Virus record (IMG/VR): IMGVR_UViG_2814123389_000006
Coordinates: 1 to 64,000 of that record
Direction: 5' to 3' (one strand)
Length of the DNA: 64,000 bases
Source of the DNA: a virus
Taxonomy: Duplodnaviria > Heunggongvirae > Uroviricota > Caudoviricetes
Part shown: positions 15,332 to 41,568 of the stretch, piece after piece
Layout: each line of letters begins with the position of its first letter
How positions within the stretch are numbered: position 1 is the stretch's first letter
The notes under the pieces: model-generated
What the model saw: the letters and a program-made list of their open reading frames with translations, nothing else
What the model was told of the DNA's origin: nothing
The model's database searches: none
Program-made: the position numbers and the translations under genes

Positions 15332-16176
15332 GCGCACCTCCGATGGCCTACTACGGCGGCAAGACGCGGGTGGCCGAGAAGATCGCGGCGTTGCTCCCAG
15401 CCCACGAGCACTACATTGAGCCGTTCGCCGGCAGCCTCGGTGTGCTGCTCGCGAAGCGGCCCAGCCGGATGGAAACCGTCAACGACCTCGACGGCCTGCT
15501 GATGACGTTCTGGCGAGTACTTCGCGAGCGACCCGCTGAGCTGGCCCGCGCGTGCGCCCTCACCCCGCATTCACGCTCGGAGTACTTGGCTGCCCGCGAG
15601 GCCGACCTTGACTCTGCGGACGACGTCGAGCGTGCCCGCCTGATCTGGGTGCAGATCGCCCAGGGCCGTGGCGGCACGCTACGGAAGACCGGGTGGCGCT
15701 GCTACGTCGACCCGGCGGGGTGCTCGTCGGGCATGCCGCAGTACCTCGCTGGCTACGTCGATCGCATGGCCGCCTGCGCCGAGCGCCTGCACCACGTCAG
15801 CCTCGAATGCCGTCCGGCGCTCGAGATCATCCAGCAATACGGGGCATTTCCCTCCTGCTGCCTGTACGTCGACCCGCCCTATCTCGGCAGCAGCCGGACC
15901 GGTGGCGGCGGCACGTACCGGCTCGAAATGCGTTCCGACAGTGAGCACGAGGAACTGCTCGAGGCGCTGCTGAACTGCCGGGCATCGGTGGTCCTGTCCG
16001 CGTACCACTCGGAGCTCTACGACCGTCTGCTGGGCGATTGGGCACGGGTGGAGATCCCGACCATGACCGGGCAGGCCAAGACGAGCCATGCGCGGACGGA
16101 GGTCGTCTGGTCCAACCGGCCGCTGACTGCGCAGCGATCGCTGTTCGATATCCGACCGAACTGGGGGCCGCGATGA
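15328..16176 (+). CDS. DNA N6-adenine methyltransferase (Dam-like, D12 class)
   Basis: Motifs MAYYGGK and DPPY (YVDPPYLGSS). Start GTG 15328 or ATG 15343. Confidence 0.75.
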   Translation: MSAPPMAYYGGKTRVAEKIAALLPAHEHYIEPFAGSLGVLLAKRPSRMETVNDLDGLLMTFWRVLRERPAELARACALTPHSRSEYLAAREADLDSADDVERARLIWVQIAQGRGGTLRKTGWRCYVDPAGCSSGMPQYLAGYVDRMAACAERLHHVSLECRPALEIIQQYGAFPSCCLYVDPPYLGSSRTGGGGTYRLEMRSDSEHEELLEALLNCRASVVLSAYHSELYDRLLGDWARVEIPTMTGQAKTSHARTEVVWSNRPLTAQRSLFDIRPNWGPR

Positions 16177-17264
16177 GCGCCAACACGAAGATCGAGTGGA
16201 CCGAGGCGACATGGTCGCCCGTCACGGGTTGCACCCGGGTCTCCGACGGTTGTCTGAACTGCTACATAGAGCGGACGCCTCCGTTCCGCATGTCGCACAG
16301 GCGATTCGACCGCGACGGGATCGGCGGCACGACCGGCGTGCTGCTGCACCCGGGGCGGTTGGGCATCCCGCTGAAGTGGCGGAAGCCCAAGCGGATCTTT
16401 GTCTGCTCAATGGCCGATCTGTTCCACGCCGAGGTCCCCGATGAGTTCATCGCCCGGGTCTGGCACGTGATGCGGATGGCGCCGGATCACACGTTCCAGG
16501 TGCTGACGAAACGTCACGATCGCATGCGGTCGCTGCTCAACTCGGTCGACTTCCGGGAGTTGGTGTTCGGCCTCGGTGGCGTCGGTCGCGGGCAGGCCAA
16601 CGGGCACCTCGAGCACTATCGGCAGTGGCCCGTGCCGAACGTATGGCTGGGCGTGAGCACCGAGAATCAGCAGTGGGCCAACATCCGCATTCCCGTCCTA
16701 CTCGACACCCCGGCCGCTGTGCGATTCATCAGTGCTGAGCCGCTTCTCGGACCGATCGACCTGATAGGTCAGGGCGGCAACATGGTGGGTGCTGGCATGT
16801 ACGCGCTGCCGGATCCGCCGGAGTACGACGGCGGAGAGCCTGTCTGTCAGGACCACGGCGTGGCGCAGTGCCAGCAAGGTTGCACATTCCTCGATTGGGT
16901 CATCGTCGGCGGTGAGTCCGGGCCTGGCGCCCGGCCGATGCACCCCGCCTGGGCGCGGGATATCCAACGGCAGTGCGCCGCAGCCGATGTCCCGTTCCTG
17001 TTCAAGCAGTGGGGCGACTGGACGCCACTAGCGCCGCTCGTGGACGGCAAGTTCGACTTCACCCGCGGTATCACGATGACCGACGACGGGATCACCTACA
17101 ACCGGGGCGATCTCGACTACCCCGACGGCCCACGCCGCGGCGAGGCCATGCGCGCCGACTTCCCACACCATCACCCGACGTCGATGTACCGGGTCGGCAA
17201 GGGGCGGGCCGGTCGTGAGCTTTACCACGACGGCCGGACCTGGGATGAGTACCCCGGTGGTTGA
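16173..17264 (+). CDS. Phage Gp37/Gp68-family protein (DUF5131)
   Basis: Hallmark N-terminus TKIEWTEATWSPVTGCTRVSDGCLNCY. ATGA overlap with Dam. In frame with track ORF 16038..17264. Confidence 0.7.
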   Translation: MSANTKIEWTEATWSPVTGCTRVSDGCLNCYIERTPPFRMSHRRFDRDGIGGTTGVLLHPGRLGIPLKWRKPKRIFVCSMADLFHAEVPDEFIARVWHVMRMAPDHTFQVLTKRHDRMRSLLNSVDFRELVFGLGGVGRGQANGHLEHYRQWPVPNVWLGVSTENQQWANIRIPVLLDTPAAVRFISAEPLLGPIDLIGQGGNMVGAGMYALPDPPEYDGGEPVCQDHGVAQCQQGCTFLDWVIVGGESGPGARPMHPAWARDIQRQCAAADVPFLFKQWGDWTPLAPLVDGKFDFTRGITMTDDGITYNRGDLDYPDGPRRGEAMRADFPHHHPTSMYRVGKGRAGRELYHDGRTWDEYPGG

Positions 17265-25845: not shown

Positions 25846-26186
25846 GCGCCGACAACTGGGCGAACTGCAAGGCCTGTATCGATAACGCGAACCGTGAGAT
25901 CGAGGAGGTCCGCAGGGAATACCAGGAGCAGCTCAATTCCAGCTATGGCGAGATCCCGCTGGACGAGTATCAGTTGCTGCAGGCGGAAGCAGCTCAGGCC
26001 ATCAGGGATGCAACGTCGAGATCCGCCGTTCCGCTCGGCACGTTTCGGGAGGACTACGAGTTCTACGGTGCCGAGGACGGGGAGGTGACCGCCTGCTACT
26101 CCGGGCGCTGCACCACGTGTGGGTACGGAGTGAGCTTCAAGCACACCGTGCCGATCCCCGAATTGGCGGAGGGCAAGCGGTCGTGA
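25842..26186 (+). CDS. Hypothetical protein
   Basis: ATGA-coupled. In frame with track ORF 25800..26186. Confidence 0.4.
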   Translation: MSADNWANCKACIDNANREIEEVRREYQEQLNSSYGEIPLDEYQLLQAEAAQAIRDATSRSAVPLGTFREDYEFYGAEDGEVTACYSGRCTTCGYGVSFKHTVPIPELAEGKRS

Positions 26187-26815
26187 GCAACGTGTGGTTC
26201 ACCTCCGACCTGCACATCGGCCACGAGTTGGTCGCGGTGCAGCGGTTCCAGCCATCCCAGATCGACGGGCCCGCCGCGATCGCATGGCACGACGCCACGC
26301 TGGCTCGAGTGTGGGACGGCAGCGTCGGCAAGGACGACCAGGTGTGGGTGCTCGGGGACCTGTCAGCGGGCGGCCCGGAGGCAACGGCATACGCGCTGAA
26401 CTGGATTGCAGACCGGCCGGGCACCAAGCACTTGGTGCCCGGCAACCACTGCCCGGTTCACCCGATGTACCGGGATGCCCACCGGTGGCAGTCGGCGTAT
26501 CAGCAAGTGTTCGCGTCGGTGCAGCCGTTCGCGCGGCGCAAGATCGCCGGGCGCTCAGTGCTGTTGTCCCACTTCCCATATGCGGGAGGTGGTGACCACA
26601 CCACCGAGGAGAGGTACACGCAGTACCGGCTGCAGGACGAGGGGTTGGTGCTGCTGCATGGCCATACGCACCGCGCAGAGAAGGTCAGTTGGGTTGGCCC
26701 GGCGGGGTTCCCACTCGCCTCGACTCTGCAGATCCATGTCGGTGTCGACGCGTGGGAAATGCGGCCGGTCCACCTTGACGAGGTGGCGGTGCTGATTGAG
26801 GAGTCGCATCGATGA
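26183..26815 (+). CDS. Calcineurin-like metallophosphoesterase (Ser/Thr phosphatase family)
   Basis: Motifs SDLHIGH, GDL, GNHC, HGHTH. GTGA-coupled. Confidence 0.65.
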   Translation: MSNVWFTSDLHIGHELVAVQRFQPSQIDGPAAIAWHDATLARVWDGSVGKDDQVWVLGDLSAGGPEATAYALNWIADRPGTKHLVPGNHCPVHPMYRDAHRWQSAYQQVFASVQPFARRKIAGRSVLLSHFPYAGGGDHTTEERYTQYRLQDEGLVLLHGHTHRAEKVSWVGPAGFPLASTLQIHVGVDAWEMRPVHLDEVAVLIEESHR

Positions 26816-27309
26816 GTGGAACAAGGCGAAGTTCGCGCCGATCGCGGGGCTTCTTCGGTGTGGCGATCTGGCGTCCGAAACGGGAGATCAACGTCGGCAC
26901 CCTGTGGCGGTCGGCGTTCCTGTACGACGCCGCGTTCTGCGCCACCGTTGGCGGCCAACGCTACGAGAAGCAGGCCTCCGACACCCCGGGCACCGCGAAT
27001 CACATTCCGCTGGTGGCCTACCAGGACATCGACGACCTGATCGAGCACCTCCCGCAGTCATGCGAATTGGTCGGGGTGGAGTTGGACGACCGGGCTGTCC
27101 CGCTCACCAGATTCCACCATCCGATGCGGGCGGTGTATCTCCTCGGCGCCGAGGACCATGGACTGCCTCCGCGGGTCCTGGCGCGGTGCCATCGGGTGGT
27201 TCAGATCCCGGGGGCGCAGGACTGGTCGATGAACGTTGGCGTGGCCGGCTCCATCGTGATGTACGACCGGTTCGCCAAGACCGCGGGCGCGGAAGCCGCG
27301 GCGTCATGA
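26812..27309 (+). CDS. SpoU/TrmH-family RNA 2'-O-methyltransferase
   Basis: SPOUT motifs AVYLLGAEDHGLPPRVLARCHRVVQIPGAQDWSMNVGVAGSIVMYD. Confidence 0.65.
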   Translation: MSGTRRSSRRSRGFFGVAIWRPKREINVGTLWRSAFLYDAAFCATVGGQRYEKQASDTPGTANHIPLVAYQDIDDLIEHLPQSCELVGVELDDRAVPLTRFHHPMRAVYLLGAEDHGLPPRVLARCHRVVQIPGAQDWSMNVGVAGSIVMYDRFAKTAGAEAAAS

Positions 27310-27321
27310 GCTACGCGGCTG

Positions 27322-28380
27322 GTGATCACCGTGGGTAGACGGCCGATCGAGCGGCATTCAACGCAGGTCGAGAAGGGCAAGCCGCAACCCCCGCCACGCG
27401 GCGGGGGCGTGCGGTCGACGATCCCGGAACGCGACCGGGCGCCGCGGCCGACAGCGAGGCCTCTGACGCCGGTGGAGTTAGCGCTCCGCCGGTATCAGGA
27501 GGACGGCGAAGTCGAGACGAACATGCGGGAGGTCGTTGAGCACATGTTCGCCGGTAGGGACATCAACGTGTCGATCACCGCGTCGAACGGCAGCGTGGCC
27601 GCGCTGTCGGTCGGCGAGGTGAGGATCGGCGCGCACCACAGCGAGAAGCCGACTTACGAGATCAGCGTGCCCCGACTTCGCCTGGGGCCACCGTGTGGCT
27701 GCGGTCGGGAGCTCTGGACGGACGACCCCGACCTGTGGAATGGGAAGCGTCGGGACTGGTATCACGCTGATGACCACACACCGGCATGCGCGTCGGCCTT
27801 CGCCCCCGCTCCGGTCGCAGGCATCGGGCGCCCCCCACCTCGACCCGTGGAATGGGAAGCGTCGCGACAGCCATCACGCCCAGCGCGGCAGCGGATCGCC
27901 CGGGCCATGGAGTTGCCGGCGGGCGCGCTCGCCCCGCGGGTGGGGGCTGCAGGCCTGACCATCGTCCACGCGGCTCTCGTCGCCCTCGCGGCCTACGGAC
28001 TGCTGTCCGACAACTGGACGTGGCTCACGCTGGTGTCCCTGCTGCTGAACGGATTGGCGGTGTGGTTCAGGGTGTGGCAGCTCCGTCGCGTCGCAGCCCG
28101 GCGGCAGCCCGACGGAGCTGTCGACGCCTCGGTGGCCGATGAGGTACAGGCCGAGGACATGCCGCCGCTCAAGCGCGCGAAGTCGATACCGGTGCGGGAC
28201 TTCACCGCGGTGTCCGAGTGTCCGAACTGCGGACTCACCACGCTGCACGAGCTGCGGGCCCCGTCCCCCACCACGGTGATCACCACCGAGGGCGGTCGGA
28301 CCGTCACGAAGGAAGATCCCGCCGGGGCCGACGTCATCCGACTGTGCGGGAAATGCGGCCAGGAATGGGGCGAGAAGTGA
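27322..28380 (+). CDS. Membrane protein with C-terminal zinc ribbon; contains out-of-frame internal direct repeat
   Basis: Two TM helices (LTIVHAALVALAAYGLL...LVSLLLNGLAVWF). CPNCG...CGKCG. 28-bp direct repeats at 27729-27756 and 27842-27869. Confidence 0.5.
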   Translation: MITVGRRPIERHSTQVEKGKPQPPPRGGGVRSTIPERDRAPRPTARPLTPVELALRRYQEDGEVETNMREVVEHMFAGRDINVSITASNGSVAALSVGEVRIGAHHSEKPTYEISVPRLRLGPPCGCGRELWTDDPDLWNGKRRDWYHADDHTPACASAFAPAPVAGIGRPPPRPVEWEASRQPSRPARQRIARAMELPAGALAPRVGAAGLTIVHAALVALAAYGLLSDNWTWLTLVSLLLNGLAVWFRVWQLRRVAARRQPDGAVDASVADEVQAEDMPPLKRAKSIPVRDFTAVSECPNCGLTTLHELRAPSPTTVITTEGGRTVTKEDPAGADVIRLCGKCGQEWGEK

Positions 28381-28461
28381 CCAGCAAATCCATCCGGGGC
28401 CCTGTGTACGTGTTGAGGGAGTGCGAAGGGTTCGGAGTGATCCGAGGGCAGGAGGTCGACG

Positions 28462-29538
28462 GTGTTCGAGCGCTCGACCTCTGACGCCCGCCCCATCGGC
28501 TCTGACGACGAGAACGATTACCACCGTTGCTATTCCGACGGCGGGTGCGTCAACGCGGACGTCTCCGAACATGACCCGGATACCCGTCGGCCGATCCGCC
28601 GAGGCGCACTGGTAGCCGACGGCCCGCTGTGCCCGGGATGCCTTCTGCGACTGTCAAAGGCAGTCAAGGCGATGTCAGGGGACTACGAACGTCTCGCCGC
28701 CGCCATCGGGGAAAGCGTGGCCGGCGGCGGCGACAAGGTCCACCTCACCCGCGAGGCCGCGATCCCGATCAACACCGCAACCGAAGCACTCATGTCGAGG
28801 ATCGTCGAAACCACCACGCGCGCCGCGGAGATGGTTTCCGACGCGATGAACATGGAGCCGCGGACATGGCCAGCCAATCCAAGCGCAGCGTTGCGTCTCG
28901 CCGTGCGAATTCTGGAACCGACCCTGCCGGTTCTGATCGCCGTGGAACCGCAGGCAGCGATGGTGTGGAGCCGGACCCCGAACGGCGATGAGGGGTGGGA
29001 ACACAACGGCCAACCGACCGAACTGATCGAGCAGTCCGGGCTAGACATGGCACTCGAGCTGTTGGAGATCGGCCGGCTCGTGGGTGTCCAGCTCGGCAAG
29101 TCGCATCTGCGACACGAACTCCCAGGGCCGTGCAGCGCCTGGGACGAAAGGGCGAAGCGATTTTGCGGCGCCTACACCGTGGGCCGCGACAACGGGTCCG
29201 ACTTTGTTGACTGCACGACGTGCGGGACGCGTTGGCCGAGCGAGCACTTCCCGATTCTGGTGCGCCTGCAACTGAACGAGATTCAAGAACGGGAGGAGTA
29301 CGAATTGCTGCGTTATCTGCTCGCCGAGGCGTACGCCCGGCTCGACGAACTGCAGGCTATGGCGGCCCGCCTCGACGGCGACGGCGCCCTGGATCTGCCC
29401 GGCGCTGGGGCGCTGCTTCTCGGCCGCGTGCAGGAGGTCCTGGACGGTCATCTGCCGCCGGCGGAGCGCAACGTCGGCACGGAATCGAAGAAGCAGAAGG
29501 CCATCCCGGCCGCCAAGCGGAAGGCGATTGAAGCATGA
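28462..29538 (+). CDS. Hypothetical protein
   Basis: Track ORF. CPGC and CTTCG motifs. Coiled-coil C-terminus. Confidence 0.45.
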   Translation: MFERSTSDARPIGSDDENDYHRCYSDGGCVNADVSEHDPDTRRPIRRGALVADGPLCPGCLLRLSKAVKAMSGDYERLAAAIGESVAGGGDKVHLTREAAIPINTATEALMSRIVETTTRAAEMVSDAMNMEPRTWPANPSAALRLAVRILEPTLPVLIAVEPQAAMVWSRTPNGDEGWEHNGQPTELIEQSGLDMALELLEIGRLVGVQLGKSHLRHELPGPCSAWDERAKRFCGAYTVGRDNGSDFVDCTTCGTRWPSEHFPILVRLQLNEIQEREEYELLRYLLAEAYARLDELQAMAARLDGDGALDLPGAGALLLGRVQEVLDGHLPPAERNVGTESKKQKAIPAAKRKAIEA

Positions 29539-29972
29539 AAACAGCACGCGGAATGGTTCGCGAGATCACGGTGTCCGCCGACCGCCAGCACGGCAAGTCG
29601 GACATGTTGCTGATGGCGACCGCCCGGGACGCTCGTCGGGGCAAGAAGGTGATCTACGAGTGCCGCGGATGGGGGCTCGCGAGCCACGCACAGAGAAGCC
29701 TGCTCGAAACGCTGCTGCCGGAGGAAGTGCTCAAATCCACCTTCAGCAACGGCAACCTACGGGTCACGCTGCGCGACCTGGGACTTGGTCCTGACTGGCC
29801 AGGGGGTGGGCTGGTGGTGTTCTCGTCCAACGGGACAGGCAGCCCATACTACGGCCGCCCCGACACCTACATCCTCGACGACACCGACCGCCCCACGCTG
29901 GAAGTGCTCTCCCGATTCCCAACGGTGACAACGATTTATCGGTCCCATTGCACCGGCGAGGATGGCTGGTGA
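29535..29972 (+). CDS. Hypothetical protein
   Basis: ATGA-coupled. Confidence 0.4.
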   Translation: MKTARGMVREITVSADRQHGKSDMLLMATARDARRGKKVIYECRGWGLASHAQRSLLETLLPEEVLKSTFSNGNLRVTLRDLGLGPDWPGGGLVVFSSNGTGSPYYGRPDTYILDDTDRPTLEVLSRFPTVTTIYRSHCTGEDGW

Positions 29973-30184
29973 GCAGCCGTCCCTTCGCGGCCAAGTTTCG
30001 CGGCCGCTGCGCAGCTGAATGCGACACCCCTCGTATCGAGCCGGGGGACCGGTGCGTGATGACCGACGGCGGCGAACTGGTCCACCTCGATTGCGACGAT
30101 GACGCTGGGACCTCGACCACGATTCGGCGGGAGCCACCGAAGTGCCCGGCCTGCAACACGTATCACGCGGGAGAGTGCATATGA
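29969..30184 (+). CDS. Small Cys-rich protein
   Basis: GTGA-coupled. CAAEC...C...C..C. Confidence 0.35.
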   Translation: MSSRPFAAKFRGRCAAECDTPRIEPGDRCVMTDGGELVHLDCDDDAGTSTTIRREPPKCPACNTYHAGECI

Positions 30185-30774
30185 AGCAGTCGGACCTGAC
30201 CAGCGTCGGCCGATGCGCATTCTGCGGCGGCCACGCCATCGACGGCTTCGGCGCCTACAAGCTCGCCGACGGCCGCGCGTTCTGCGGTGCCGCTGCGTGC
30301 GCCCCCGCACCCCGGCCCGATGGCGCGTGGCGCATGGGCGACAGGTTCATCCCAGAGGATGCCCGGTACTCCGGCGGGTGGACCTGGTGGTGGTGGCGCT
30401 ACACCCTGACATCACGCGACGTGTTGATGATGCAGACCGACGATCCAGACACGTCGACGGCGGTTTTTGTCTGGCTCGAGCTGGGTGATGGACCGACGAT
30501 CCCATTGCGCGCCGACGTCCTGGGCCGCATCTACGTCGTCCACGACACCAGCAACGCGCCCACGTGGGCTCGGGAGCTGACGCGGGTGTGGCTGCCAGAT
30601 ACGCACGTCGACGTCCTGGCACCTGAAGCGCCGGCCGAAGGGTGGCGGCAACAACTACGGGAGGACCCGATCGGCAGGGTCTGGTGGCATCACGAAACTG
30701 AGGGCCACGATCGGCACTTCCGCAGCATGCGGCCGCAGAGTCTCGTGCAGACCAGGGTGGGCGGTCCAGAGTGA
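30181..30774 (+). CDS. Hypothetical protein
   Basis: ATGA-coupled. CAFCGG...C..AAC. Confidence 0.4.
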   Translation: MKQSDLTSVGRCAFCGGHAIDGFGAYKLADGRAFCGAAACAPAPRPDGAWRMGDRFIPEDARYSGGWTWWWWRYTLTSRDVLMMQTDDPDTSTAVFVWLELGDGPTIPLRADVLGRIYVVHDTSNAPTWARELTRVWLPDTHVDVLAPEAPAEGWRQQLREDPIGRVWWHHETEGHDRHFRSMRPQSLVQTRVGGPE

Positions 30775-31082
30775 TTCCGCCGCCCACGCCCCCACCTCCG
30801 CTAGAGCTGGAGGACGTCGACTCGATCCCCGACCAAGCGCACGACTGGGGCCGGGAATGGGAGAGCGACTACCACAGCGGCCGTGTCTGCAATGTGTGCG
30901 GCGAAAACTCGGAATGCCTGTCGTGCTACCCGAATTCAAAAGCGCTCGAGGAGATGGATTGCCTTCGCGCTCAGGCCGAGGACCGCAACTTCATCCGCGA
31001 GCGCGAGCACCGAGCCGCGACCGCGCGCTACGAGGCGCAGATGGACTACTACCGCGAAATCACGAAAGGCGCTGACAGTTGA
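30771..31082 (+). CDS. Hypothetical Cys-containing protein
   Basis: GTGA-coupled. CNVCGENSECLSC. Confidence 0.4.
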   Translation: MIPPPTPPPPLELEDVDSIPDQAHDWGREWESDYHSGRVCNVCGENSECLSCYPNSKALEEMDCLRAQAEDRNFIREREHRAATARYEAQMDYYREITKGADS

Positions 31083-31090
31083 GCATTTTC

Positions 31091-31945
31091 ATGAAGGCAT
31101 TGGGCTCGGCCGGACTTGTGCCCACCTCCAGCGGCGAGGGCTTCGCGCAACCAGGGTCCTTCACGTTTCCCGGCGGCGAGCACCACTTGCGGAACATTCC
31201 CGACTTCGACGAGCCGGTGACCTGGATCGCCGACGTGAGAGGCGCCGACCCCAACGATCTGGTCAAGGCAGCGCTGTTGGCCGACGTGGCACACCAGCGC
31301 AACGACCGATTCGTTCTGTGGCTGCCATACGCGCCCGCTGCCCGCGCCGACCGCGGCCAGCCCCTCGGAGTGAAGGTGTACGCCGATCTGATCAACACGA
31401 TGCAGGCCGAACGTGTCGTGATCATCGATCCGCACAGTCCGACCGTCGTCGAGCACCTGAACCATGTTGTCGTCGCCGACGTGCTCGGGCTTATCGACCG
31501 CGTCATGGGTTCAGGGCTGGTACGTCGCCACTTCGACGGTGTGATCGCACCCGACAAGGGCGCCACCGAACGGGCCGCAGTGGTCGCGAAGCACCTTGAT
31601 ATCGACCTGTATCAAGCCGAGAAGGACCGCGACTTCGAGACCGGGCGAATCCTCGGCATCCGCATGCTCGACCGGCTCCCCGAGTCCGGCGGCTACCTCG
31701 TGGTCGACGACATCTGTGACGGCGGAGGAACTTTCAAACTGCTAGCCCAGGCGACCGGTTTACCGCGCGAACAGCTCGCCCTGTGGGTCACGCACGGCAT
31801 CTTCTCGGGCATCGCCTGCCACCTCCGCGATGACTACCACCAGATTTTCACCACCGACTCCCATCCCGGGCACAACCGGGTGGACGTCGCAACCACCATC
31901 GTCCCCACCTTCACCAGCCTGTTCACCGCAACCACCAGGAGCTGA
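31091..31945 (+). CDS. Ribose-phosphate pyrophosphokinase-like enzyme (Prs-like; candidate ADPR-PP synthetase Adps of NARP1)
   Basis: PRPP-binding loop YLVVDDICDGGGT. Two-domain Prs-like layout. Immediately upstream of a NAMPT-family gene. Confidence 0.7.
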   Translation: MKALGSAGLVPTSSGEGFAQPGSFTFPGGEHHLRNIPDFDEPVTWIADVRGADPNDLVKAALLADVAHQRNDRFVLWLPYAPAARADRGQPLGVKVYADLINTMQAERVVIIDPHSPTVVEHLNHVVVADVLGLIDRVMGSGLVRRHFDGVIAPDKGATERAAVVAKHLDIDLYQAEKDRDFETGRILGIRMLDRLPESGGYLVVDDICDGGGTFKLLAQATGLPREQLALWVTHGIFSGIACHLRDDYHQIFTTDSHPGHNRVDVATTIVPTFTSLFTATTRS

Positions 31946-31949
31946 TCCG

Positions 31950-33437
31950 ATGACCGATTTCACGCCCGTCGCTGCGCTGTTCCAGACCGATGCCTACAAG
32001 CTCGACCACCGCCGCCAGTACGGGCTGAGCGGCAACGTCACCCGGGTCTACTCGAACTTCACCAACCGCAAGTCCCGGCTGCCCGGCGTTGACCACGTCG
32101 TCCACTTCGGACTGCAGGCGTATATCCAGAAGCACCTCGTTGAGGCCTTCAAGCCGTTCTTCGCGGCCGACGAATCTGTGGTCACTGAGCTGTACTTCCA
32201 GCGCGTGAAGTCCATTCTGGGACCCGATGCGGCGCGCGCGATCGGCGTCAAACACATTCGTGACCTCCACCAATTGGGCTACCTGCCGTTGCGGTTCTGT
32301 GCTGTCCCCGAGGGCACGCTGGTACCCATCCGAGCACCGAGCTTCACCGTGGAGAACACCGCCCCAGAGTTCTTCTGGCTGACCAACTACATCGAGACCG
32401 GCTTGTCGGCCGGCTACTGGCAGGCCAGCACATCGGCCACCATCGCCCACGAATATCGCAAGGCGCTCGAGGCGGCGGCTGAACGGACCGGAGCCCCCAT
32501 CGAGGCAGTCGATTGGCAGTGCCACGACTTCAGCTATCGGGGCATGTCGAGTCACGAAACCGCGGCGGCGTCGGGCGCAGCCCATCTGCTGTCGTTCACG
32601 GGCACCGACTCGTTGGTGGCGCTGGACTGGATCGACCGCTACTACGGCGGGGAGTACGTTGCGGGATCTGTTGCGGCGACGGAGCACTCGGTGATGTGCA
32701 CCGGCATCGCGACCGCCGGGGAGTTGGAGACGTTCGAGCGGCTGCTCGACCTGTACCCGTCCGGCATCGTGTCGGTCGTCTCGGACACTTTCGACCTGTG
32801 GCGCGTCCTCACCGAGTACCTGCCGAAGCTGAACGACAAGATCATGTCGCGGGACGGCAAGTTGGTGATCCGGCCAGACTCCGGCGACCCGCTCAAGATC
32901 CTGTGCGGCGACCCGCAGGCGACCGCGGGAAGCCCCGCGCACCGCGGCGTGGTGGGGTTGCTGCTCGATCAGTTCGGCGGCGCCGAGAACGAAGCAGGGT
33001 TCATGGAGTTGGACCCGTGCGTGGGCGTGATCTATGGCGATTCCATCACCATCGAGCGCGCGAACTCCATCACGGCGAAGTTAGCGCTGATGGGATTCGC
33101 CTCCACCTCGGTGGTGTTCGGCGTCGGCAGCTACACCTACCAGCACAACACCAGGGACACCTTCGGCAGCGCCATGAAAGCCACCTGGGCCGAGGTCGAC
33201 GGCAAGGGCGTGGACCTGTTCAAGAACCCCGTCACCGATGACGGCACGAAGCGCAGCGCCACCGGCCGCCTCGCTGTCCTGCCAACTGGCCCAGATGGTG
33301 CCCTGGAGCTGCACGAGCGGGCTGGCGGCTACCAGCAGCAGCACTCGGTACTCCAGCCCGTTTGGGAGGACGGCAAGTTCATCGAGCGGCAGACATTCGC
33401 CAATGTCCGCGAGGTGCTCGCCGCACAGGCCCGGTAG
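31950..33437 (+). CDS. Nicotinamide phosphoribosyltransferase-family enzyme (NAMPT/NadV-like; candidate Namat of NARP1)
   Basis: N-terminal FQTDAYKLDHRRQY (the DSYK motif of NAMPT). About 495 aa. ATG 31950, in frame with track ORF 31830..33437. Confidence 0.75.
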   Translation: MTDFTPVAALFQTDAYKLDHRRQYGLSGNVTRVYSNFTNRKSRLPGVDHVVHFGLQAYIQKHLVEAFKPFFAADESVVTELYFQRVKSILGPDAARAIGVKHIRDLHQLGYLPLRFCAVPEGTLVPIRAPSFTVENTAPEFFWLTNYIETGLSAGYWQASTSATIAHEYRKALEAAAERTGAPIEAVDWQCHDFSYRGMSSHETAAASGAAHLLSFTGTDSLVALDWIDRYYGGEYVAGSVAATEHSVMCTGIATAGELETFERLLDLYPSGIVSVVSDTFDLWRVLTEYLPKLNDKIMSRDGKLVIRPDSGDPLKILCGDPQATAGSPAHRGVVGLLLDQFGGAENEAGFMELDPCVGVIYGDSITIERANSITAKLALMGFASTSVVFGVGSYTYQHNTRDTFGSAMKATWAEVDGKGVDLFKNPVTDDGTKRSATGRLAVLPTGPDGALELHERAGGYQQQHSVLQPVWEDGKFIERQTFANVREVLAAQAR

Positions 33438-33474
33438 TGCCACCCGTGATTGCGCCTCACTCCGGCGGCGTCCA

Positions 33475-33867
33475 GTGACCGACCAGGATTGGCCGCCGCC
33501 GGGGTGGACACAGCAGGACTGCGATCGCCTGGTGGCCATCACCTACCGGCAGCTCTGCGAGCAGATCGCGGCCGGCGAGGTAGCGGACCCCGCGACCGCA
33601 TTGGCTGACATGGACCGGCTTTGGTCAGGCCGCTCGGTGCAGTGGATGCTGCCAACTCTGCAGATGCCGGGCGAGGACGACTGGCTGACCGACGAGGAAG
33701 TGGCCCGCTGGGTGGGCTGCCGGGCTGTCACGGTCCGCAACTGGGCGAGCCGGGCCCGCCGTGGTGGCGACGGTGTCATCCCAATCAACGGTCGCTACCG
33801 GTGGGGCGATGTCCAGGAGTACCGGCAGCGCCAGAACCAACGGCGGCAGGGACAGTCGGATGGATGA
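33475..33867 (+). CDS. Excisionase/AlpA-type HTH DNA-binding protein
   Basis: HTH LTDEEVARWVGCRAVTVRNWASR. GTG 33475, in frame with track ORF 33238..33867. Confidence 0.45.
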   Translation: MTDQDWPPPGWTQQDCDRLVAITYRQLCEQIAAGEVADPATALADMDRLWSGRSVQWMLPTLQMPGEDDWLTDEEVARWVGCRAVTVRNWASRARRGGDGVIPINGRYRWGDVQEYRQRQNQRRQGQSDG

Positions 33868-33887
33868 GGCGCAAATCTACACAAATG

Positions 33888-33916
33888 TTGAACACAATTG
33901 TGTGGATTTGTATGAT
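33888..33916 (+). promoter_or_regulatory. Sigma-70/SigA-like promoter TTGAAC-17-TATGAT with embedded 12-bp palindrome ACACAATTGTGT
   Basis: -35 at 33888-33893, -10 at 33911-33916, palindrome at 33892-33903. -10 ends 7 nt before ATG 33924, implying a leaderless transcript. Confidence 0.45.
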
Positions 33917-33923
33917 CGGCGCT

Positions 33924-34562
33924 ATGAAGCACTTCTTGAGCAGCACCCAGGTCGCAGAACGCCTTGGCATGACCCGTGATGCGTTGAATACCAAGATCCG
34001 TGCCGATGCCTTCATTCCGCCTGATGTAGTGGTTGGGGACCGATATCAGGGCTGGTCGGTTGAGTCCATTGAAAAATGGGCCGAGTCTGGCGGTGGGGAT
34101 CGAATCCGGGTCGACAGCGACAAACTGTTCGATGTGGTTACCAGTATTCGGCGGGCGGCCGAGAGGGTTCGCGCATTTGGCCGTAGCCCGGAAGGTGGCA
34201 ACGGCACGGCGATTGCGGTTCCGTCCGACCTTCACATGCTTGCGGGACGGTTGGAGGCGGAGGCCCGCAGCTGGCTGGAGGTACGGGACTACTCCGGCAA
34301 GCGTTTCAGACAGCTCGTCGATGTCGCGACGGGTGTCACTGAGATCAGGGTTGAGTTTGAGCAGGTTCCGACGCTCGTTGGCTCGCCCGCGTTACCGCCG
34401 GATGTCCGAAGGCTTGAGCTTCACGCCGCAGCGGACGAGATGGCATTGGCGGCGGAGGAAATTCGCCGCGCTTTGGTGGCGAAGTCTTCACGCCACTACC
34501 AAGAGTCGCTGCTGAAAAAGGCGGCGCAGATCCATGAGTTCGCTGATGCGCTAATGACATAG
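33924..34562 (+). CDS. HTH (excisionase/MerR-like) regulator, probably leaderless
   Basis: N-terminal HTH LSSTQVAERLGMTRDALNTKIRADAFIPPD...GWSVESIEKWAE. ATG 33924 (alternative 33912). Confidence 0.5.
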   Translation: MKHFLSSTQVAERLGMTRDALNTKIRADAFIPPDVVVGDRYQGWSVESIEKWAESGGGDRIRVDSDKLFDVVTSIRRAAERVRAFGRSPEGGNGTAIAVPSDLHMLAGRLEAEARSWLEVRDYSGKRFRQLVDVATGVTEIRVEFEQVPTLVGSPALPPDVRRLELHAAADEMALAAEEIRRALVAKSSRHYQESLLKKAAQIHEFADALMT

Positions 34563-35246: not shown

Positions 35247-35507
35247 ATGGCGAGCGTGGAAAAGATCGAGGCCCAGATGCGGGAATCGGCGGCCAACGTG
35301 GCGTACAACGACCTCTACAAGGTCTGCGTCCACTACTTCGGCGACGCCCGCCAGAAGGGCTCCAGCCACGCTGTGTTCCGCACCCCGTGGCAGGGCAACC
35401 CGCGCGTCAACATTCAGAATGACCACGGCAAAGCCAAGGCCTACCAGGTCAAACAGGTCTTGGAAGCCATCGCCAAGCAGGCCGAGATGAGAAAGGGGAA
35501 CCACTGA
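35247..35507 (+). CDS. hicA: HicA-family toxin (mRNA interferase)
   Basis: 86 aa. GSSHAVF...H motif region. Immediately upstream of a HicB-like gene with TGATG coupling. Confidence 0.55.
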   Translation: MASVEKIEAQMRESAANVAYNDLYKVCVHYFGDARQKGSSHAVFRTPWQGNPRVNIQNDHGKAKAYQVKQVLEAIAKQAEMRKGNH

Positions 35508-36091
35508 TGTCCAATCACTACACCTACCGGGCCGAGTGGTCGCCCGAGGACAACGAATACGTCGGGCTCGTTGCCGAGTTCCCGAGCTTGTCCTGGCTAG
35601 CCCCGTCCGCGGGCGAGGCTATCGCCGGCGCAGAGCGCCTGGTCGATGACATCTTGGCTGATATGGCCGAGACGGGTGAAACCCCGCCCGAGCCGCTAAC
35701 CGAGCGTCGCTACAGCGGGAACCTGTCGGTGCGTACCAGCCCGGAGCAGCATCGCCAGCTCACCATCGAGGCCGCCGAGCAAGGCGTCTCGGTTAATCAG
35801 TGGATCATCCAGAAGCTCGGCAAGGACTGGTCCGGGGCCCGCGCCGGTGTCGCCTCGGGTGTCGAGGAGGTGCTTGCGAATGTGGTTGGCCAGCGGGTTA
35901 AGCCGAAGTTTCCGTCCTTCGACCTGATGGTCCGGGAGGTCGCAGAGTCGATCATGGATCCCGTGGATATTGGGTCGTTCGCTCCGTCCTTCAAGCAGCC
36001 GGAAGGGGCGGCATTTCTAGTGCTGTACAACGACACTGCTGGCACCCACGTGGTGAGCCTCGGGGAGGTCAAGTCGAAGGCGAAGAAGTAG
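35507..36091 (+). CDS. hicB: HicB-family antitoxin (HicB N-domain plus RHH DNA-binding)
   Basis: N-terminal HicB-like YRAEWSPEDNEYVGLVAEFPSLSWLAPSAGEAIAGAERLV. RHH segment SGNLSVRTSPEQHRQLTIEAAEQGVSVNQWIIQKL. Confidence 0.65.
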   Translation: MSNHYTYRAEWSPEDNEYVGLVAEFPSLSWLAPSAGEAIAGAERLVDDILADMAETGETPPEPLTERRYSGNLSVRTSPEQHRQLTIEAAEQGVSVNQWIIQKLGKDWSGARAGVASGVEEVLANVVGQRVKPKFPSFDLMVREVAESIMDPVDIGSFAPSFKQPEGAAFLVLYNDTAGTHVVSLGEVKSKAKK

Positions 36092-36166: not shown

Positions 36167-36187
36167 TTCAACATGTTCGGGTGATGT

Positions 36188-36320
36188 GAGCCGGACGCAG
36201 ATCGGTTATCCACTTCTAATGGAGAGGTCGCGGGTTCGAGTCCCGTCACCCCGTTCGCGGGGTGTAGCTCAGTCGGCAGAGCGCTAAACCCCGGTCCGCA
36301 GACACACGCCCACATCGCCT
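36188..36320 (+). ncRNA. Y-RNA-like (YrlA-type) ncRNA candidate 1 with permuted tRNA-like module
   Basis: T-arm GCGGG-TTCGAGT-CCCGT (36230-36246). 3' acceptor CACCCCG joined by TTCG loop to complementary CGGGGTG. tRNA D-arm TAGCTCAGTCGGCAGAGCGC. No anticodon arm. 5' GAGCCGGA...ATCGGTTATC. Ends with ACACGCCCACA. Confidence 0.45.
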
Positions 36321-36341
36321 GAGTAACAACTCAATTGCTGC

Positions 36342-36470
36342 GAGCCGGAGCATGATCGGTTATCGATTTGGGATCGAGAGGTCGCGGGTTCGAATCCCGC
36401 TCACTCAGGTGGCCTGGGGGATAGCTCAGTGGTAGAGCGCTAAAACCCGGTCGGCACAACACGCCCGCAG
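36342..36470 (+). ncRNA. Y-RNA-like ncRNA candidate 2 with tRNA-like T-arm/acceptor-like stem/D-arm module
   Basis: T-arm GCGGG-TTCGAAT-CCCGC (36384-36400). Stem-loop CTCAG-GTGGC-CTGGG. D-arm TAGCTCAGTGGTAGAGCGC. Same 5' GAGCCGGAG...ATCGGTTATC and 3' ACACGCCCGCA framing. Confidence 0.45.
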
Positions 36471-36496
36471 CACTCAACAACTGAACATTGCGATGC

Positions 36497-36640
36497 GAGC
36501 CGAAGCGAATCGGTTAACCAATGGTCCGTGGGTTCAAATCCCACTGCACGCCAATGCAGTTCGGTGTGTATGGCAGAGCGGCCTAATGCAACTGGCCTCA
36601 AACTCCCGGTACGCGCACCACGCCCGCATCGCTCCAGGTC
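36497..36640 (+). ncRNA. Y-RNA-like ncRNA candidate 3 (degenerate tRNA-like module)
   Basis: T-arm GTGGG-TTCAAAT-CCCAC (36528-36544). Stem-loop CTGCA-CGCCAA-TGCAG. Degenerate D-arm (TGGCAGAGC). 5' GAGCCGAAGCGAATCGGTTAACC. 3' CCACGCCCGCA. Confidence 0.35.
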
Positions 36641-36824: not shown

Positions 36825-38483
36825 ATGGCAGTGGACGTGTTGGCGACCGTGAGCACCCGGCGGACCCCGCAGACGGAGAAGGCCGACCCGCGCCAAATCC
36901 GAAACGCTGCAGGCGGATACACGTTCGCCGTCGATGACTGGGCGCGCGTCCACCGGTTCCTCACCCTCGGTGTCGATGGCGGAACCTACTACACGGGCGC
37001 CGCCGAGCTGGCCAAGGACAACGCTGAGGTGATCTTGCGCGCCGCCGCGACCGACCCGATCGAGCTGGTCCGCCGCATCGTCGAAGTCTCGACGGCTGGC
37101 CGCGCCCCCAAGCAGAACCCCGCCCTGTTCGCGCTCGCGATCGCCGCCGCGGCCGACGACGTCGACGGCCGGCGCGCCGCGCTGGCCGCACTGCCCCAGG
37201 TGGCCCGCACCGGCACCCACCTGTTCCTGTTCGCGCGGTACGTCGAGCAGTTCCGCGGTTGGGGCCCAGCCTTGGCGAAGGGCGTTGCCCGCTGGTACAC
37301 CGATCGCAACGTCGACAAGCTGGCCTACCAGGTGGTGAAGTACCGGCAGCGGGAGGGCTGGACCCACCGGGACCTGCTGCGCCTGTCGCATCCCGTGACC
37401 GTCGAGCCGGAACGCCGCGCTCTGTTCGATTTCGTGACTCGTGGCTCGCTCGGCGCAGTCCCCGAAGCGCTGGACCCCGGCGAGGTCCGGGTGGGACTCC
37501 CGGCGATTATCGAGGACTTCACCGCCGCGCAGAACAGCACCTCCATCCACGACTGGGTTGACCTGATCGGCCGCGGAAACGGGCTGTCGTGGGAGATGCT
37601 GCCCGACGCAGCGCTCGGCCACGCCAAGGTGTGGGAGGCGCTGATCGATCAGGGCATTCCGCAGACCGCGCTGATGCGGCAGCTCCCGCGCCTGACCCGT
37701 CTGGGTCTGGCCGTGGGCGATACCGGTCGGACGATCGCGGCCCAGTTGCAGGACCCTGTTCGGCTGAAGACCGGCCGGGTGCATCCGATCAACGTCCTGG
37801 TGGCTCAGCGCACCTACACGTCGGGCCAGTCGGCCCGCGGAGAGTCGACGTGGACGCCGGTCTCGAAGATCAGCGACGCGCTCGACGCGGCGTTCTACAA
37901 CGCGTATGGCGCGGTCGAGCCGTCCGGTAAGCGGATCCTGCTTGCCCTGGACGTGTCGGGTTCGATGACGGCGCCCGTGTCCGGGCTGCCGCTGTCGTGC
38001 CGGGAGTCCTCCGCCGCGCTGGCGATGGTCACCGCGGGAACCGAGCCCAACCACGACATCGTGGGCTTCACCGGCCGGCACGGGAACAACGGTTACGGCG
38101 CCTACGTCACGTCGACGGCGTTGACCGAGCTGGATATCAGCCCGCGCCGGCGCCTGGACGACGTGTGCCGCTACGTCGGCGGCCTGCCGATGGGGATGAC
38201 CGACTGCGCTCTGCCGTTCACCTGGGCGGCCGAGCAGAAGCGGGTCTACGACGCGGTCGTGGTCCTCACCGACAACGAATCGTGGGCAGGACCGGTCCAC
38301 GTCCACCAGGCGCTGCGGCGGTACCGGGAACAGATCAATCCCGAGGCGCGCCTGATCGTCGCGTCGATGACGGCTCGACCCAACACGGTTGCGGACCCGA
38401 AGGACCCGCTGTCGCTGGACGTGTCGGGCTTCGACACGACCGTGCCGCAGGTGATCAGCGACTTCGCGGCCGGTCGGATCTGA
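36825..38483 (+). CDS. rsr: Ro60 ortholog (Rsr; TROVE domain plus C-terminal vWA/MIDAS domain)
   Basis: RBS AAAGGAG. TROVE-like N-terminal region (GYTFAVDDWARVHRFLTLGVDGGTYY). C-terminal vWA with MIDAS DVSGSM. Preceded by the Y-RNA-like array. Confidence 0.7.
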   Translation: MAVDVLATVSTRRTPQTEKADPRQIRNAAGGYTFAVDDWARVHRFLTLGVDGGTYYTGAAELAKDNAEVILRAAATDPIELVRRIVEVSTAGRAPKQNPALFALAIAAAADDVDGRRAALAALPQVARTGTHLFLFARYVEQFRGWGPALAKGVARWYTDRNVDKLAYQVVKYRQREGWTHRDLLRLSHPVTVEPERRALFDFVTRGSLGAVPEALDPGEVRVGLPAIIEDFTAAQNSTSIHDWVDLIGRGNGLSWEMLPDAALGHAKVWEALIDQGIPQTALMRQLPRLTRLGLAVGDTGRTIAAQLQDPVRLKTGRVHPINVLVAQRTYTSGQSARGESTWTPVSKISDALDAAFYNAYGAVEPSGKRILLALDVSGSMTAPVSGLPLSCRESSAALAMVTAGTEPNHDIVGFTGRHGNNGYGAYVTSTALTELDISPRRRLDDVCRYVGGLPMGMTDCALPFTWAAEQKRVYDAVVVLTDNESWAGPVHVHQALRRYREQINPEARLIVASMTARPNTVADPKDPLSLDVSGFDTTVPQVISDFAAGRI

Positions 38484-38759: not shown

Positions 38760-38815
38760 CCCAGGGGGTGTCTTCCCCAGGAGGGATAGTCGGCATTTAA
38801 CTTTTCTGGCCCCAG
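38760..38815. terminator. Candidate bidirectional terminator between convergent genes
   Basis: GGGGG-TGTCTT-CCCC hairpin followed by TTTAACTTTTCTGG. Lies between the + gene ending 38687 and the - gene ending 38797. Confidence 0.25.
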
Positions 38816-39456
38816 GGCGTCCAGAGCGTCACCAGCGTGGGTTCCACCGCCGTGGTGTACCAGTGCGTTGTCTTGCCGGTGAGGTGCCGCTGAACGGCCC
38901 ATAGGCCGTAGTCGGCCACCTGGAGGCCCCAGGACGTTGCAGCGTCCCAGTAGCAAAGCTTGATCACGCGGTTGACCTGTGCGCAAACCTCTGCCAGCGC
39001 TGCTTTCGCTTGCTGCCGGCGTGCGGCGGTGGCGATGGTGCCGACGATGACGAAGAGTTCGTCCTGTGGGGTGCACACCCACTTCGCGACCTCCTTGAAG
39101 TGGAGGTACCAGGCCATCTTGTAGAGGTACATCTCGCCCTTGGCCTGCACGTATGGGTAGGCGTTGGACTTGCAGAGGAACGTGGTGTCGAACCTGGGTG
39201 CCTGCTGGCGGATCAGGTCGTACATTTCGTTCTTGGTCGGCTTGCTGTCGTTCACCGCGTGGAACCCGCGGGGCAGGGTGAGGCCCGAAGCCTCGATCTG
39301 CGCGCGGAGCTTGAGCCCGTCATAGAGGTGCTCGCCGTGGGAATGATCGGGGAACACCGCGGTCCCGAAGCCGAAGTAGTCGGTCGCGCCCGCTTTGCCG
39401 TCGGGGGAGTAGTCGAGGTTGCCGGTTTCGTCGGCATACATGTAGATGGTGGCCAC
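38797..39456 (-). CDS. DUF3800-family protein (minus-strand moron)
   Basis: N-terminus (M)ATIYMYADETGNLDY matches the DUF3800 M-x-IY-x-DESG hallmark. GTG start. Opposite strand to the phage backbone. Confidence 0.5.
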   Translation of the reverse strand: MATIYMYADETGNLDYSPDGKAGATDYFGFGTAVFPDHSHGEHLYDGLKLRAQIEASGLTLPRGFHAVNDSKPTKNEMYDLIRQQAPRFDTTFLCKSNAYPYVQAKGEMYLYKMAWYLHFKEVAKWVCTPQDELFVIVGTIATAARRQQAKAALAEVCAQVNRVIKLCYWDAATSWGLQVADYGLWAVQRHLTGKTTHWYTTAVEPTLVTLWTPWGQKS

Positions 39457-39817: not shown

Positions 39818-40156
39818 TCAGCCGTGGGGGAGAAACAGCACCGTTTCGGGCATGAACACGGCGGCGAAGATGCACAGGGCTATGTGGGTGACGAGCATCG
39901 TGCGGAGGAACAAGCCGAGCCGGTGTCGGGGTGGCTCATCTGGTGCTCGCCTGCGTTCCGTGATGACCGAGGTCACTACGAGCACGGCTGAGATGAGCAA
40001 TGCAACGAACGCCGCCGTGCCGAACGACACCGTGTAGAAGCCGACGAGCGCGAGCATGAGCACCAGCCAGACATACACAGCCAGTCCAGCGGCTACGCCG
40101 GCCACGACGATCCCCGCGGACTGCGCCAGCCGCCTGGGTGATTGGTTGGCAACCAT
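39818..40156 (-). CDS. Small membrane protein (candidate immunity protein for upstream toxin)
   Basis: 3-4 TM helices. ATG is 3 nt after the toxin stop (TGAccgATG). Confidence 0.5.
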   Translation of the reverse strand: MVANQSPRRLAQSAGIVVAGVAAGLAVYVWLVLMLALVGFYTVSFGTAAFVALLISAVLVVTSVITERRRAPDEPPRHRLGLFLRTMLVTHIALCIFAAVFMPETVLFLPHG

Positions 40157-40159
40157 CGG

Positions 40160-41293
40160 TCATGGACCTTTCGTCAGCACGGGCACCGCGCCCTCGGCTG
40201 CCGCGATGTTGGCCGCGAGCCGGTCGATGTAAGGCTGCCACGTCAGCGCGGCGACCTGACCGTAGCCCGCCCGGATCGGCGCGCCGACCCAGCCCTCATC
40301 TGTGCCGGGCCCGTGAGCGATGTAGCCGCGTATGCCCAGATGCATCTCGCCACCCGATTCGTAGAAGCGGAAGTGGATCGTGCTGCCTTCACCGTCGACG
40401 TGGCCGGGCAGCGTCGCGAACTCGATATTGATCTCGTTCGCCGTCTTGTCGATCTGGGTCACCTCGACCGGGAAATCAGCCGCGTGGATGCCGAACCGCT
40501 CAATTTCGAGGGGTAGGTGATCACCGACTTTGGGCATCTTGGCCGGCGCACCTCCCATCGGGAAGTTGCAGTTGAAGCAGCGGTTCAGCTCTTTCCACAC
40601 GTCATCGACGCTCATGATCGTTCCGGCGCTGGGCTTCCCGGGGGCGTCGAGCCACACGCGGGTCGTGAGATCGAGGTTGTACTCCCAGGGCTTGTCGTGG
40701 TCGAGGATCGGCCACTGCTTGAAGTCAACTGCGTGAACGATCCCGTCGGCGGGGAAGTAGTCACCCTCGCCGGCGAACCGGATGCTGTCGAGCTCGGTGG
40801 CGCTCGCCTCGAGGCGGCTGCCGATCAGCCTGTCGGTCTGCAGGAGCTGATCGGCGTTCCACCGGATGTTCTCGGCGTGCTCCGTCGCCATCCTGTACCG
40901 GTCGGCCATTGTGGACACGTCGATTCGCCGGGTGTCCCTGACGGAGAGGTCCTCACCGACTCGGAACCCAGCGGCCTCGGCCTCGGCGATGGCTTCCAGG
41001 ACCGCGCGTACAGCGGCTCGCAGGTCTCCCGCGCCGTCGGTGGCGATCGCCGCAGCGCGGCGGGCGACGTCCCCGTGCTGACGGACTACCGCCAGGTCGG
41101 CTGAGGTGCGATCGGCGGCCGCGTCGCTGCCAGCGCCGGACCAACCATCGGCGGGTTGGTTCTGCTGCTCGAACAGAGTCTCGGACTGGCCCGCCGACTC
41201 CACCCAGCGGGTGGCCATGGACTCGAGGTGGGTGATGTCCCAGTTCTCGATCTGCGATCGCGTCAGCGCACTACCGGAGGCCGTCGTGCTCAT
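40160..41293 (-). CDS. WXG100-domain polymorphic toxin candidate (T7SS/ESX-exported; C-terminal toxin domain of unknown activity)
   Basis: N-terminal helical domain with WxG motif (ADGWSGAGSDAA). Divergent C-terminal about 200 aa (FPADGIVHAVDFKQW...NRCFNCNFPMGG...). ATGA-coupled to upstream 92-aa gene. Followed by small membrane ORF. Confidence 0.55.
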   Translation of the reverse strand: MSTTASGSALTRSQIENWDITHLESMATRWVESAGQSETLFEQQNQPADGWSGAGSDAAADRTSADLAVVRQHGDVARRAAAIATDGAGDLRAAVRAVLEAIAEAEAAGFRVGEDLSVRDTRRIDVSTMADRYRMATEHAENIRWNADQLLQTDRLIGSRLEASATELDSIRFAGEGDYFPADGIVHAVDFKQWPILDHDKPWEYNLDLTTRVWLDAPGKPSAGTIMSVDDVWKELNRCFNCNFPMGGAPAKMPKVGDHLPLEIERFGIHAADFPVEVTQIDKTANEINIEFATLPGHVDGEGSTIHFRFYESGGEMHLGIRGYIAHGPGTDEGWVGAPIRAGYGQVAALTWQPYIDRLAANIAAAEGAVPVLTKGP

Positions 41294-41568
41294 ATCGACC
41301 TCGATAGACCGTCAGCTGCGCCGTCGTCGGTGTCGGTGTACCCCGCGCTGGCGGTGCGCAGATCTGATGCGTGGCGGCCGGCGCGGGCGGACTGGCGAGC
41401 GCGGGCCGAGGCGAGTGCCGTGTCGAACGACGAGGCGCCCGCGTGGCTGGGTTGGCTGCCTGCCGGCGGCCCGCTGCTGGTGCCGGTTGCGAGCGTTTCT
41501 GCGATGTCGTCGCTCCGCAAAGACGCCGCGTTCAAGCGCGCGCTGTCCACCGATAGTTCGTCTGCCAC
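41290..41568 (-). CDS. Small ESX/WXG-associated partner protein (hypothetical)
   Basis: RBS GAGGGG precedes GTG start. ATGA-coupled to the toxin gene. 92 aa, Ala/Ser-rich. Confidence 0.4.
   Translation of the reverse strand: MADELSVDSARLNAASLRSDDIAETLATGTSSGPPAGSQPSHAGASSFDTALASARARQSARAGRHASDLRTASAGYTDTDDGAADGLSRSI

Follow-up and report, generated by a model that had tools for sequence, protein, structure and literature searches.

NAD+ reconstitution pathway 1 (NARP1) has been reported in 859 phage genomes, which represent 4.3% of those analysed (Osterman et al.), and its founding examples, from SPbetaL1 (Bacillus) and Bas63 (Escherichia), are two-gene Adps-Namat operons (Osterman et al.). 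Purified Adps and Namat of the mycobacteriophage DyoEdafos convert ADP-ribose (ADPR) to NAD+ in vitro (bioRxiv 10.64898/2026.05.28.727677). Also, Myrna, Bantam, OneUp, Octobien14, Thibault and others appear in the supplementary tables of Osterman et al. with a Namat-neighboured Prs/Adps or an Adps-associated Namat, and DefenseFinder is among the tools that already detect NARP1. Here we describe two adjacent genes from positions 1 to 64,000 of the IMG/VR virus record IMGVR_UViG_2814123389_000006, a 64-kb stretch of DNA that we call the window. On the comparisons given below, these two genes (gene 1, adps-like, and gene 2, namat-like) very probably constitute a NARP1 cassette of a Mycolicibacterium fortuitum prophage. 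The prophage that carries them is found in assembly GCA_001667445.1, contig LZIH01000199.1 (157 kb), where the NCBI product names are "hypothetical protein" for gene 1 and "nicotinate phosphoribosyltransferase" for gene 2. This public annotation is mislabelled for both products.

The namat-like gene (31950..33437, + strand) encodes a putative nicotinamide ADPR-transferase of the NAMPT family with 495 aa, as judged from Pfam and PDB matches, identity and a neighbour-joining (NJ) tree. Its open reading frame (ORF) opens at 31830 and the start supported by homology is the ATG at 31950. The protein matches Pfam NAPRTase (1.2e-35) and NAMPT_N as well as NCBIfam NF006629 (2.6e-147, 491 bits). NF006629 and phrog_448 were considered as tests for Namat and rejected, given that NadV of KVP40 scores as well as Namat proteins do. 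Since such generic models fail to separate Namat from Nampt, we relied on clamp motifs and on the tree for Namat identity. Namat is told apart from Nampt by an adenine-binding "selectivity clamp" composed of a loop (SCL), whose Arg, Lys or Tyr stacks on adenine, and a helical element (SCH) with the consensus GS-X-phi-X-phi-X-phi-TRD (PMC12774641). We found both elements in gene 2. The SCL, NRKSRLPGVD (32064..32093, +), has an Arg, R43, aligned with the adenine-stacking R40 of SPbetaL1, and it is longer by 3-5 residues than in the phage Nampt proteins of KVP40, Aeh1, Ccr5 and P52_1. The SCH, GSYTYQHNTRD (33126..33158, +), fits the Namat consensus with the right length and register, being Tyr at position 3 and His at position 7, whereas the same four Nampt proteins show GGGLLQ..(T/D)RD-type sequences in this place (GGGLLQQLDRD in KVP40).

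The catalytic core of gene 2, taking the residues defined in PMC12774641 (F189, R192, D215, the catalytic His, R306 and D308 of SPbetaL1), is kept in full: D14, Y16, F194, R197, D220, A243, R308, D310, G363 and D364, together with the catalytic His, which is that of a conserved TEHS. In a PDB search the best match was the Namat of SPbetaL1 (9w5x/9w5w, 461 bits), while human NAMPT reached 217 bits. Protein identity is 44-48% to Namat of Bacillus, Staphylococcus and ICP1 phages (46-48% for those of Bacillus and Staphylococcus phages related to SPbetaL1) versus 30% to NadV of KVP40. In the NJ tree, gene 2 groups with the mycobacteriophage WXIN and with DyoEdafos within the Namat clade, outside NARP2-type Nampt. 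Published trees likewise set Adps-linked proteins apart from Nampt proteins (Osterman et al.).

The adps-like gene (31079..31945, + strand) would encode an ADPR-pyrophosphate synthetase of the Prs superfamily, an assignment drawn from the ORF, phrog_619 and identity to DyoEdafos gp77. Two starts are in use for the same stop codon (TGA, 31943-31945): the TTG at 31079, which gives 288 aa and is the RefSeq start, and an internal ATG at 31091, which gives 284 aa and is the GenBank start. The TTG is likely the real one, because it overlaps the stop of the upstream gene (TTGA) and because the resulting N-terminus, (M)SIFMKAL, parallels the annotated N-terminus of the WXIN homologue, MSISMKLL. The original prediction had placed the start at 31091; this is an internal ATG, and the upstream TTG is the likelier choice. 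Regarding codon usage, GC content at third positions is 0.82 in gene 1 and 0.87 in gene 2, a bias typical of real genes in this sequence.

Gene 1 and E. coli Prs (class I) belong to the same superfamily, and the FxxGE, RxDR, DPHS/DLHA and DDxxDxGGT motifs and the catalytic Lys can be aligned between them, but identity is 21.5% and two loops differ. One is the phosphoribosyl/pyrophosphate-binding loop YLVVDDICDGGGT (31694..31732, +; aa 202-214), where Adps-type sequences read DDICDGG(G/R/A)T and E. coli Prs reads DDMIDTGGT, that is, DGGGT in gene 1 versus DTGGT in Prs. The other is the flexible loop, KDRDFETGRIL in gene 1 versus KRRPRANVSQV in Prs, which forms part of the Adps loop EKDRDFETGRILG (31619..31657, +). 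This loop holds K178, followed by an R-D/N-x-x-T-G-x-I signature. K178 aligns with K162 of SPbetaL1 Adps, whose K162A change is inactive. The catalytic Lys is kept in all Adps proteins and also in E. coli Prs (K194), so its presence is necessary for an Adps but does not discriminate it from Prs. The TG-x-I signature, on the other hand, was found in 13/13 aligned Adps-type sequences and not in E. coli Prs.

Profile scores point in the same direction. Gene 1 matches phrog_619 end to end (251.6 bits, 1.6e-74) and falls below every NCBIfam Prs cut-off, scoring 23-70 bits where the cut-offs are 113-536; the best of these Prs models gives it 69.7 bits (cut-off 296), and TIGR01251 gives it 68 (cut-off 113). 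E. coli Prs scores 423-533 bits on the curated Prs models. We calibrated TIGR01251 and phrog_619 with proteins of known function, namely E. coli Prs and three validated Adps. TIGR01251 gave 423 bits for E. coli Prs, 138 for Bas63, 106 for SPbetaL1, 82 for DyoEdafos and 68 for gene 1, while phrog_619 gave 193, 333, 248, 243 and 252 bits, respectively. By these sequence scores the pattern of gene 1 is Adps-like and unlike that of Prs; the placement in the Adps subfamily follows this pattern and the identity to DyoEdafos gp77 rather than a broad phylogeny that samples cellular Prs widely.

Both genes are on the + strand and are separated by a spacer of 4 nt (31946..31949) between the adps stop and the namat ATG, and the AGGAG ribosome-binding site of gene 2 sits within the 3' end of adps. 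Promoter and terminator scans found no promoter-like or terminator-like site between them, nor in the rightward block when the + strand was scanned from 26000 to 33888. This dense block, made up of genes of lytic type (RecT, YqaJ, methylases, RusA), ends with the Adps-Namat pair. When the region after the stop of namat was folded, no terminator reached significance (z = -0.53). As neither a significant terminator nor a promoter within 26000-33888 was found, the limits of the operon are only loosely defined. A sigma-70-like promoter match at 33888-33916, between two small genes 3' of namat, suggests that a new transcription unit begins after the pair. These small genes, at 33475-33867 and 33912-34562 (+), lie directly 3' of namat and show weak helix-turn-helix (HTH) or AlpA-like signals (E 0.04-0.2).

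The two-gene arrangement agrees with that of SPbetaL1 and Bas63, and the window has in common with the founding NARP1 the Namat catalytic core, the Arg of the SCL, the SCH motif and the catalytic Lys of Adps; it departs from SPbetaL1 at SCH position 7, with His and not Tyr. Among characterized systems, DyoEdafos (MN234187; gp77 Adps, gp79 Namat), from a host genus related to that of the window, has the same gene order and strand, with identities of 55% for Adps and 74% for Namat. Its SCH, GSFTYQHNTRD, also bears the unusual His at position 7. In DyoEdafos, however, a RyDEP glycosidase gene (gp78) lies between adps and namat, whereas the window has no insertion there; the flanking genes are unrelated, and DyoEdafos, unlike the M. 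fortuitum prophage of the window, is a phage isolated in free form. In a Mycobacterium sp. chromosome from a metagenome-assembled genome (OZ257262.1) we found a homologue of the DyoEdafos RyDEP (82% identity) between adps and namat, at 4813-5205 of the fetched locus (L016); among all loci fetched, only this one and DyoEdafos carry such an insertion.

The closest pair in the phage collection is that of Mycobacterium phage WXIN (OR813930; Omegavirus), with protein identities of 68.5% for Adps and 79.5% for Namat; at the nucleotide level, the two pairs are about 76% identical. In WXIN the two genes are directly adjacent, Adps is annotated as "hypothetical protein", and SCH position 7 is Tyr. This is a 115-kb phage whose other neighbouring genes are unrelated to those of the window. 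A few kb upstream of the pair, WXIN encodes a TrmH-family methylase along with a polynucleotide kinase/phosphatase, and the window holds a calcineurin-like metallophosphatase and a SpoU/TrmH-family RNA methylase at 26117-27309 (+), ~4 kb upstream of the pair.

The original prediction had described a Prs-like gene with YLVVDDICDGGGT followed by a NAMPT-family gene with TDAYKLDH; both ORFs and both motifs are present, the latter at aa 13-20 (nt 31986-32009). Its NARP1-type reading (Adps plus Namat) gains support from the clamp motifs, the Namat match in the PDB, the identity to DyoEdafos and the profile score pattern, and the comparison that it had proposed, of Adps/Namat with canonical Prs/NAMPT, comes out in favour of Adps/Namat by scores, motifs and NJ tree.

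We also searched for partner genes. A Pfam search of some 70 called gene products of the 64-kb window, joined end to end, found no NMNAT (CTP_transf_like) or NUDIX domain, in line with the earlier claim that such partners are missing, and no Macro (Adpp) or RyR (PF02026) domain either; tblastn with DyoEdafos gp78 found no RyDEP homologue in the window. Given that none of these five was found in the window, the pair corresponds to the plain two-gene form of NARP1. The genes upstream, among them the one that overlaps the start of adps, and downstream were tried as conserved accessories by tblastn versus 90 other Adps-Namat loci, with no matches. As flanking genes recur at 0/90 of these loci, only the two genes travel together.

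Taking these data into account, the following model may be proposed. During lytic growth the pair would be co-transcribed at the end of the long rightward early/middle gene block and would be translationally linked. Adps would move pyrophosphate from ATP onto the 1'' position of ADP-ribose to form ADPR-pyrophosphate (ADPR-PP). Namat may then grip the adenine of ADPR-PP by means of the selectivity clamp (R43, Y395, H399) and would join nicotinamide to it, with NAD+ and pyrophosphate as products. In this way, an NAD+ pool split into ADPR and nicotinamide by Thoeris-, SIR2- or DSR-type defences could be refilled, which would allow phage replication to be completed.

Several points weigh against this interpretation. 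Regarding gene 2, His at SCH position 7 is a minority residue: among 83 Namat-type motifs obtained from 86 fetched loci, 69 have Tyr here, 9 have Phe and 3 have His. Furthermore, Namat enzymes retain in vitro the activity that converts phosphoribosyl pyrophosphate (PRPP) to nicotinamide mononucleotide (NMN) (PMC12774641), and some canonical salvage is possible. For gene 1, identity to the Adps of Bas63 and SPbetaL1 is only 27-29%, a hidden Markov model built from six non-actinophage Adps separates it (142 bits) from E. coli Prs (117 bits) only modestly and is given no weight here, and the PDB search matched Prs-type structures only, with no Adps structure among them. The partner-gene scan covered 64 kb of the element, part of which lies outside the window. 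Finally, we infer the enzyme activities of these proteins by analogy from DyoEdafos and SPbetaL1 data, and we also infer the expression timing and the anti-defence effect of the pair.

The His at SCH position 7 was found in a mycobacterial sub-lineage that includes the window, DyoEdafos and a few others. Together with the temperate nature of the prophage, it could denote a shift in donor specificity, such as towards an ADPR derivative made by mycobacterial NADases, or a role in protecting the lysogen, instead of plain NARP1 counter-defence, although we consider this unlikely. It is also unlikely that the pair boosts canonical salvage, gene 1 being a divergent PRPP synthetase and gene 2 a true NAMPT that forms NMN, from which the NMN adenylyltransferase of the host would finish NAD+. 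The Prs and NAMPT superfamilies do include these two proteins, most phage records annotate them accordingly, their catalytic cores are common with Prs and NAMPT, and the NMN-forming activity kept by Namat proteins would fit as well. Canonical Prs plus Nampt salvage is nonetheless disfavoured because gene 1 stays below all curated Prs cut-offs, with an Adps-type loop, and gene 2 has the Namat-specific clamp and not the Nampt-type GGGLLQ..RD; moreover, the nearest tested homologues use ADPR and published trees part Adps-linked proteins from Nampt.

A further alternative retains NARP1 biochemistry and moves its benefit to the lysogen, where the resident prophage would protect the NAD+ pool of its host, for instance against NADase toxins. 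Integration of the element in a bacterial genome would fit this, and so would the wide occurrence of Adps-Namat pairs across actinobacterial genomes (many of the loci that we kept are from Curtobacterium) and the activity of bacterial NARP1 homologues (PMC12774641). The position of the pair at the end of the rightward lytic-type block, with no promoter-like site of its own, speaks against such a role, which we judge to be very unlikely. The least probable reading by our estimate is a NARP2-type pathway, in which the NAMPT would work with an NMNAT/Nudix protein encoded elsewhere in the prophage, beyond the 64 kb scanned within the 157-kb contig, and the Prs-like gene would merely supply PRPP; it is disfavoured because the window has no NMNAT and gene 2 is in the wrong clade, and it also sits poorly with the report that no phage has both pathways and that Nampt-clade genes occur without Adps partners (Osterman et al.). 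KVP40, which represents NARP2 (NadV Nampt plus NatV NMNAT/Nudix), shares with gene 2 the NAMPT-family fold and the catalytic core, and both pass NF006629, but it differs in identity, clamp region, SCL length and clade, and the window has an Adps in place of the NMNAT/Nudix partner.

With NARP1 as the preferred interpretation, we analysed the distribution of the pair. We found Adps homologues in 1,495 phage records, including 104 of Mycobacterium, and phage records of Gordonia, Microbacterium and Rhodococcus also carry the Adps-Namat pair. The original prediction held that such a pair would be notable in an actinophage; these records, several of which, close relatives included, are in the published NARP1 tables, contradict it. 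In actinobacterial genomes, 80 loci with an Adps homologue were kept out of 258 confirmed stretches, and Namat adjoins Adps in 78/80 of them in otherwise unrelated contexts. Judging by these gene neighbourhoods, Adps and Namat genes move together as one unit. Curtobacterium accounts for many of the loci kept, and others belong to Arthrobacter, Glutamicibacter, Pseudoclavibacter, Leucobacter and the Curtobacterium plasmid pCPAA3. At 90% identity, the clusters of both pair proteins contain only 4 sequences each. The locus is a mis-annotated addition to the already described NARP1 family, its kind being known and actinophage examples being numerous. In this sense, a further temperate prophage of mycobacteria joins the phages, roughly 4%, for which NAD+ rebuilding is already known as a counter-defence; the locus raises no new mechanistic question. 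Mislabelled pairs matter, however, for predicting which mycobacteriophages and prophages overcome NAD+-depleting defences, as in the case of therapeutic phages for non-tuberculous mycobacteria.

The window (overall GC of 67%) is a temperate siphophage-like element. At its left edge, a repressor-like HTH ORF (1-390, - strand), listed from base 1 and perhaps truncated by the window edge, is divergent from a Cro-like HTH ORF (403-684, +) that is followed by an antirepressor-domain gene. These divergent HTH genes and the antirepressor resemble a temperate-phage immunity switch. The 64-kb window contains no integrase. Pfam gives the order after the HTH pair as antirepressor, YqaJ, Band-7, three DNA methylases, DUF5131, RusA, metallophosphatase and SpoU methylase, and further right HicB, Ro60 and DUF3800 precede the portal, protease, capsid and tail tube genes. 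The DNA methyltransferases, at 13140-16176 and 48927-50237 (+), comprise a C5-cytosine enzyme of 694 aa, an N6-adenine enzyme of the D12 class and an N6/N4 enzyme fused to ParB_N, and the DUF5131 protein is encoded at 16038-17264.

To the right of the pair, an 86-aa ORF (35247-35507, +) is followed by a 194-aa HicB-domain protein (35507-36091, +; HicB 2.5e-15), and together they look like a HicA/HicB-type toxin-antitoxin, where the HicA call was made by reading the sequence only. A tRNA-Arg(TCT) at 36177-36254 is followed downstream by a Ro60/Rsr orthologue of 552 aa with TROVE and vWA_Ro60 domains (36825-38483, +). In the same region there is an Rfam tRNA match at 36320-36408, as well as sub-threshold matches to YrlA (Y RNA-like) at 36223-36285 and 36360-36460, with 38 and 34 bits for a gathering score of 69. 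The stretches 36177-36550 and 36825-38483 look like a prophage-borne Ro-Y RNA module.

A minus-strand cassette at 39818-41568 resembles a polymorphic toxin-immunity cassette of the mycobacterial-prophage type. It encodes a 377-aa protein with a WXG/ESX-like N-terminus and no Pfam domain even at E <= 0.5, preceded by a 92-aa gene with a faint T7SS_ESX_EspC match and followed by a gene for a 112-aa multi-pass membrane protein. No link between this cassette and the NARP1 pair was found. It had been proposed that the pair belongs to an island with this candidate WXG toxin, a proposal that did not hold: the toxin-like gene (40160-41293) is ~7 kb away on the opposite strand, HTH, HicAB, tRNA/Y-RNA-like and Ro60 modules intervene, and the neighbours of the pair are kept at no other Adps-Namat locus. 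Between Ro60 and the toxin-like cassette lies a gene for a DUF3800 protein of 219 aa (38797-39456, -).

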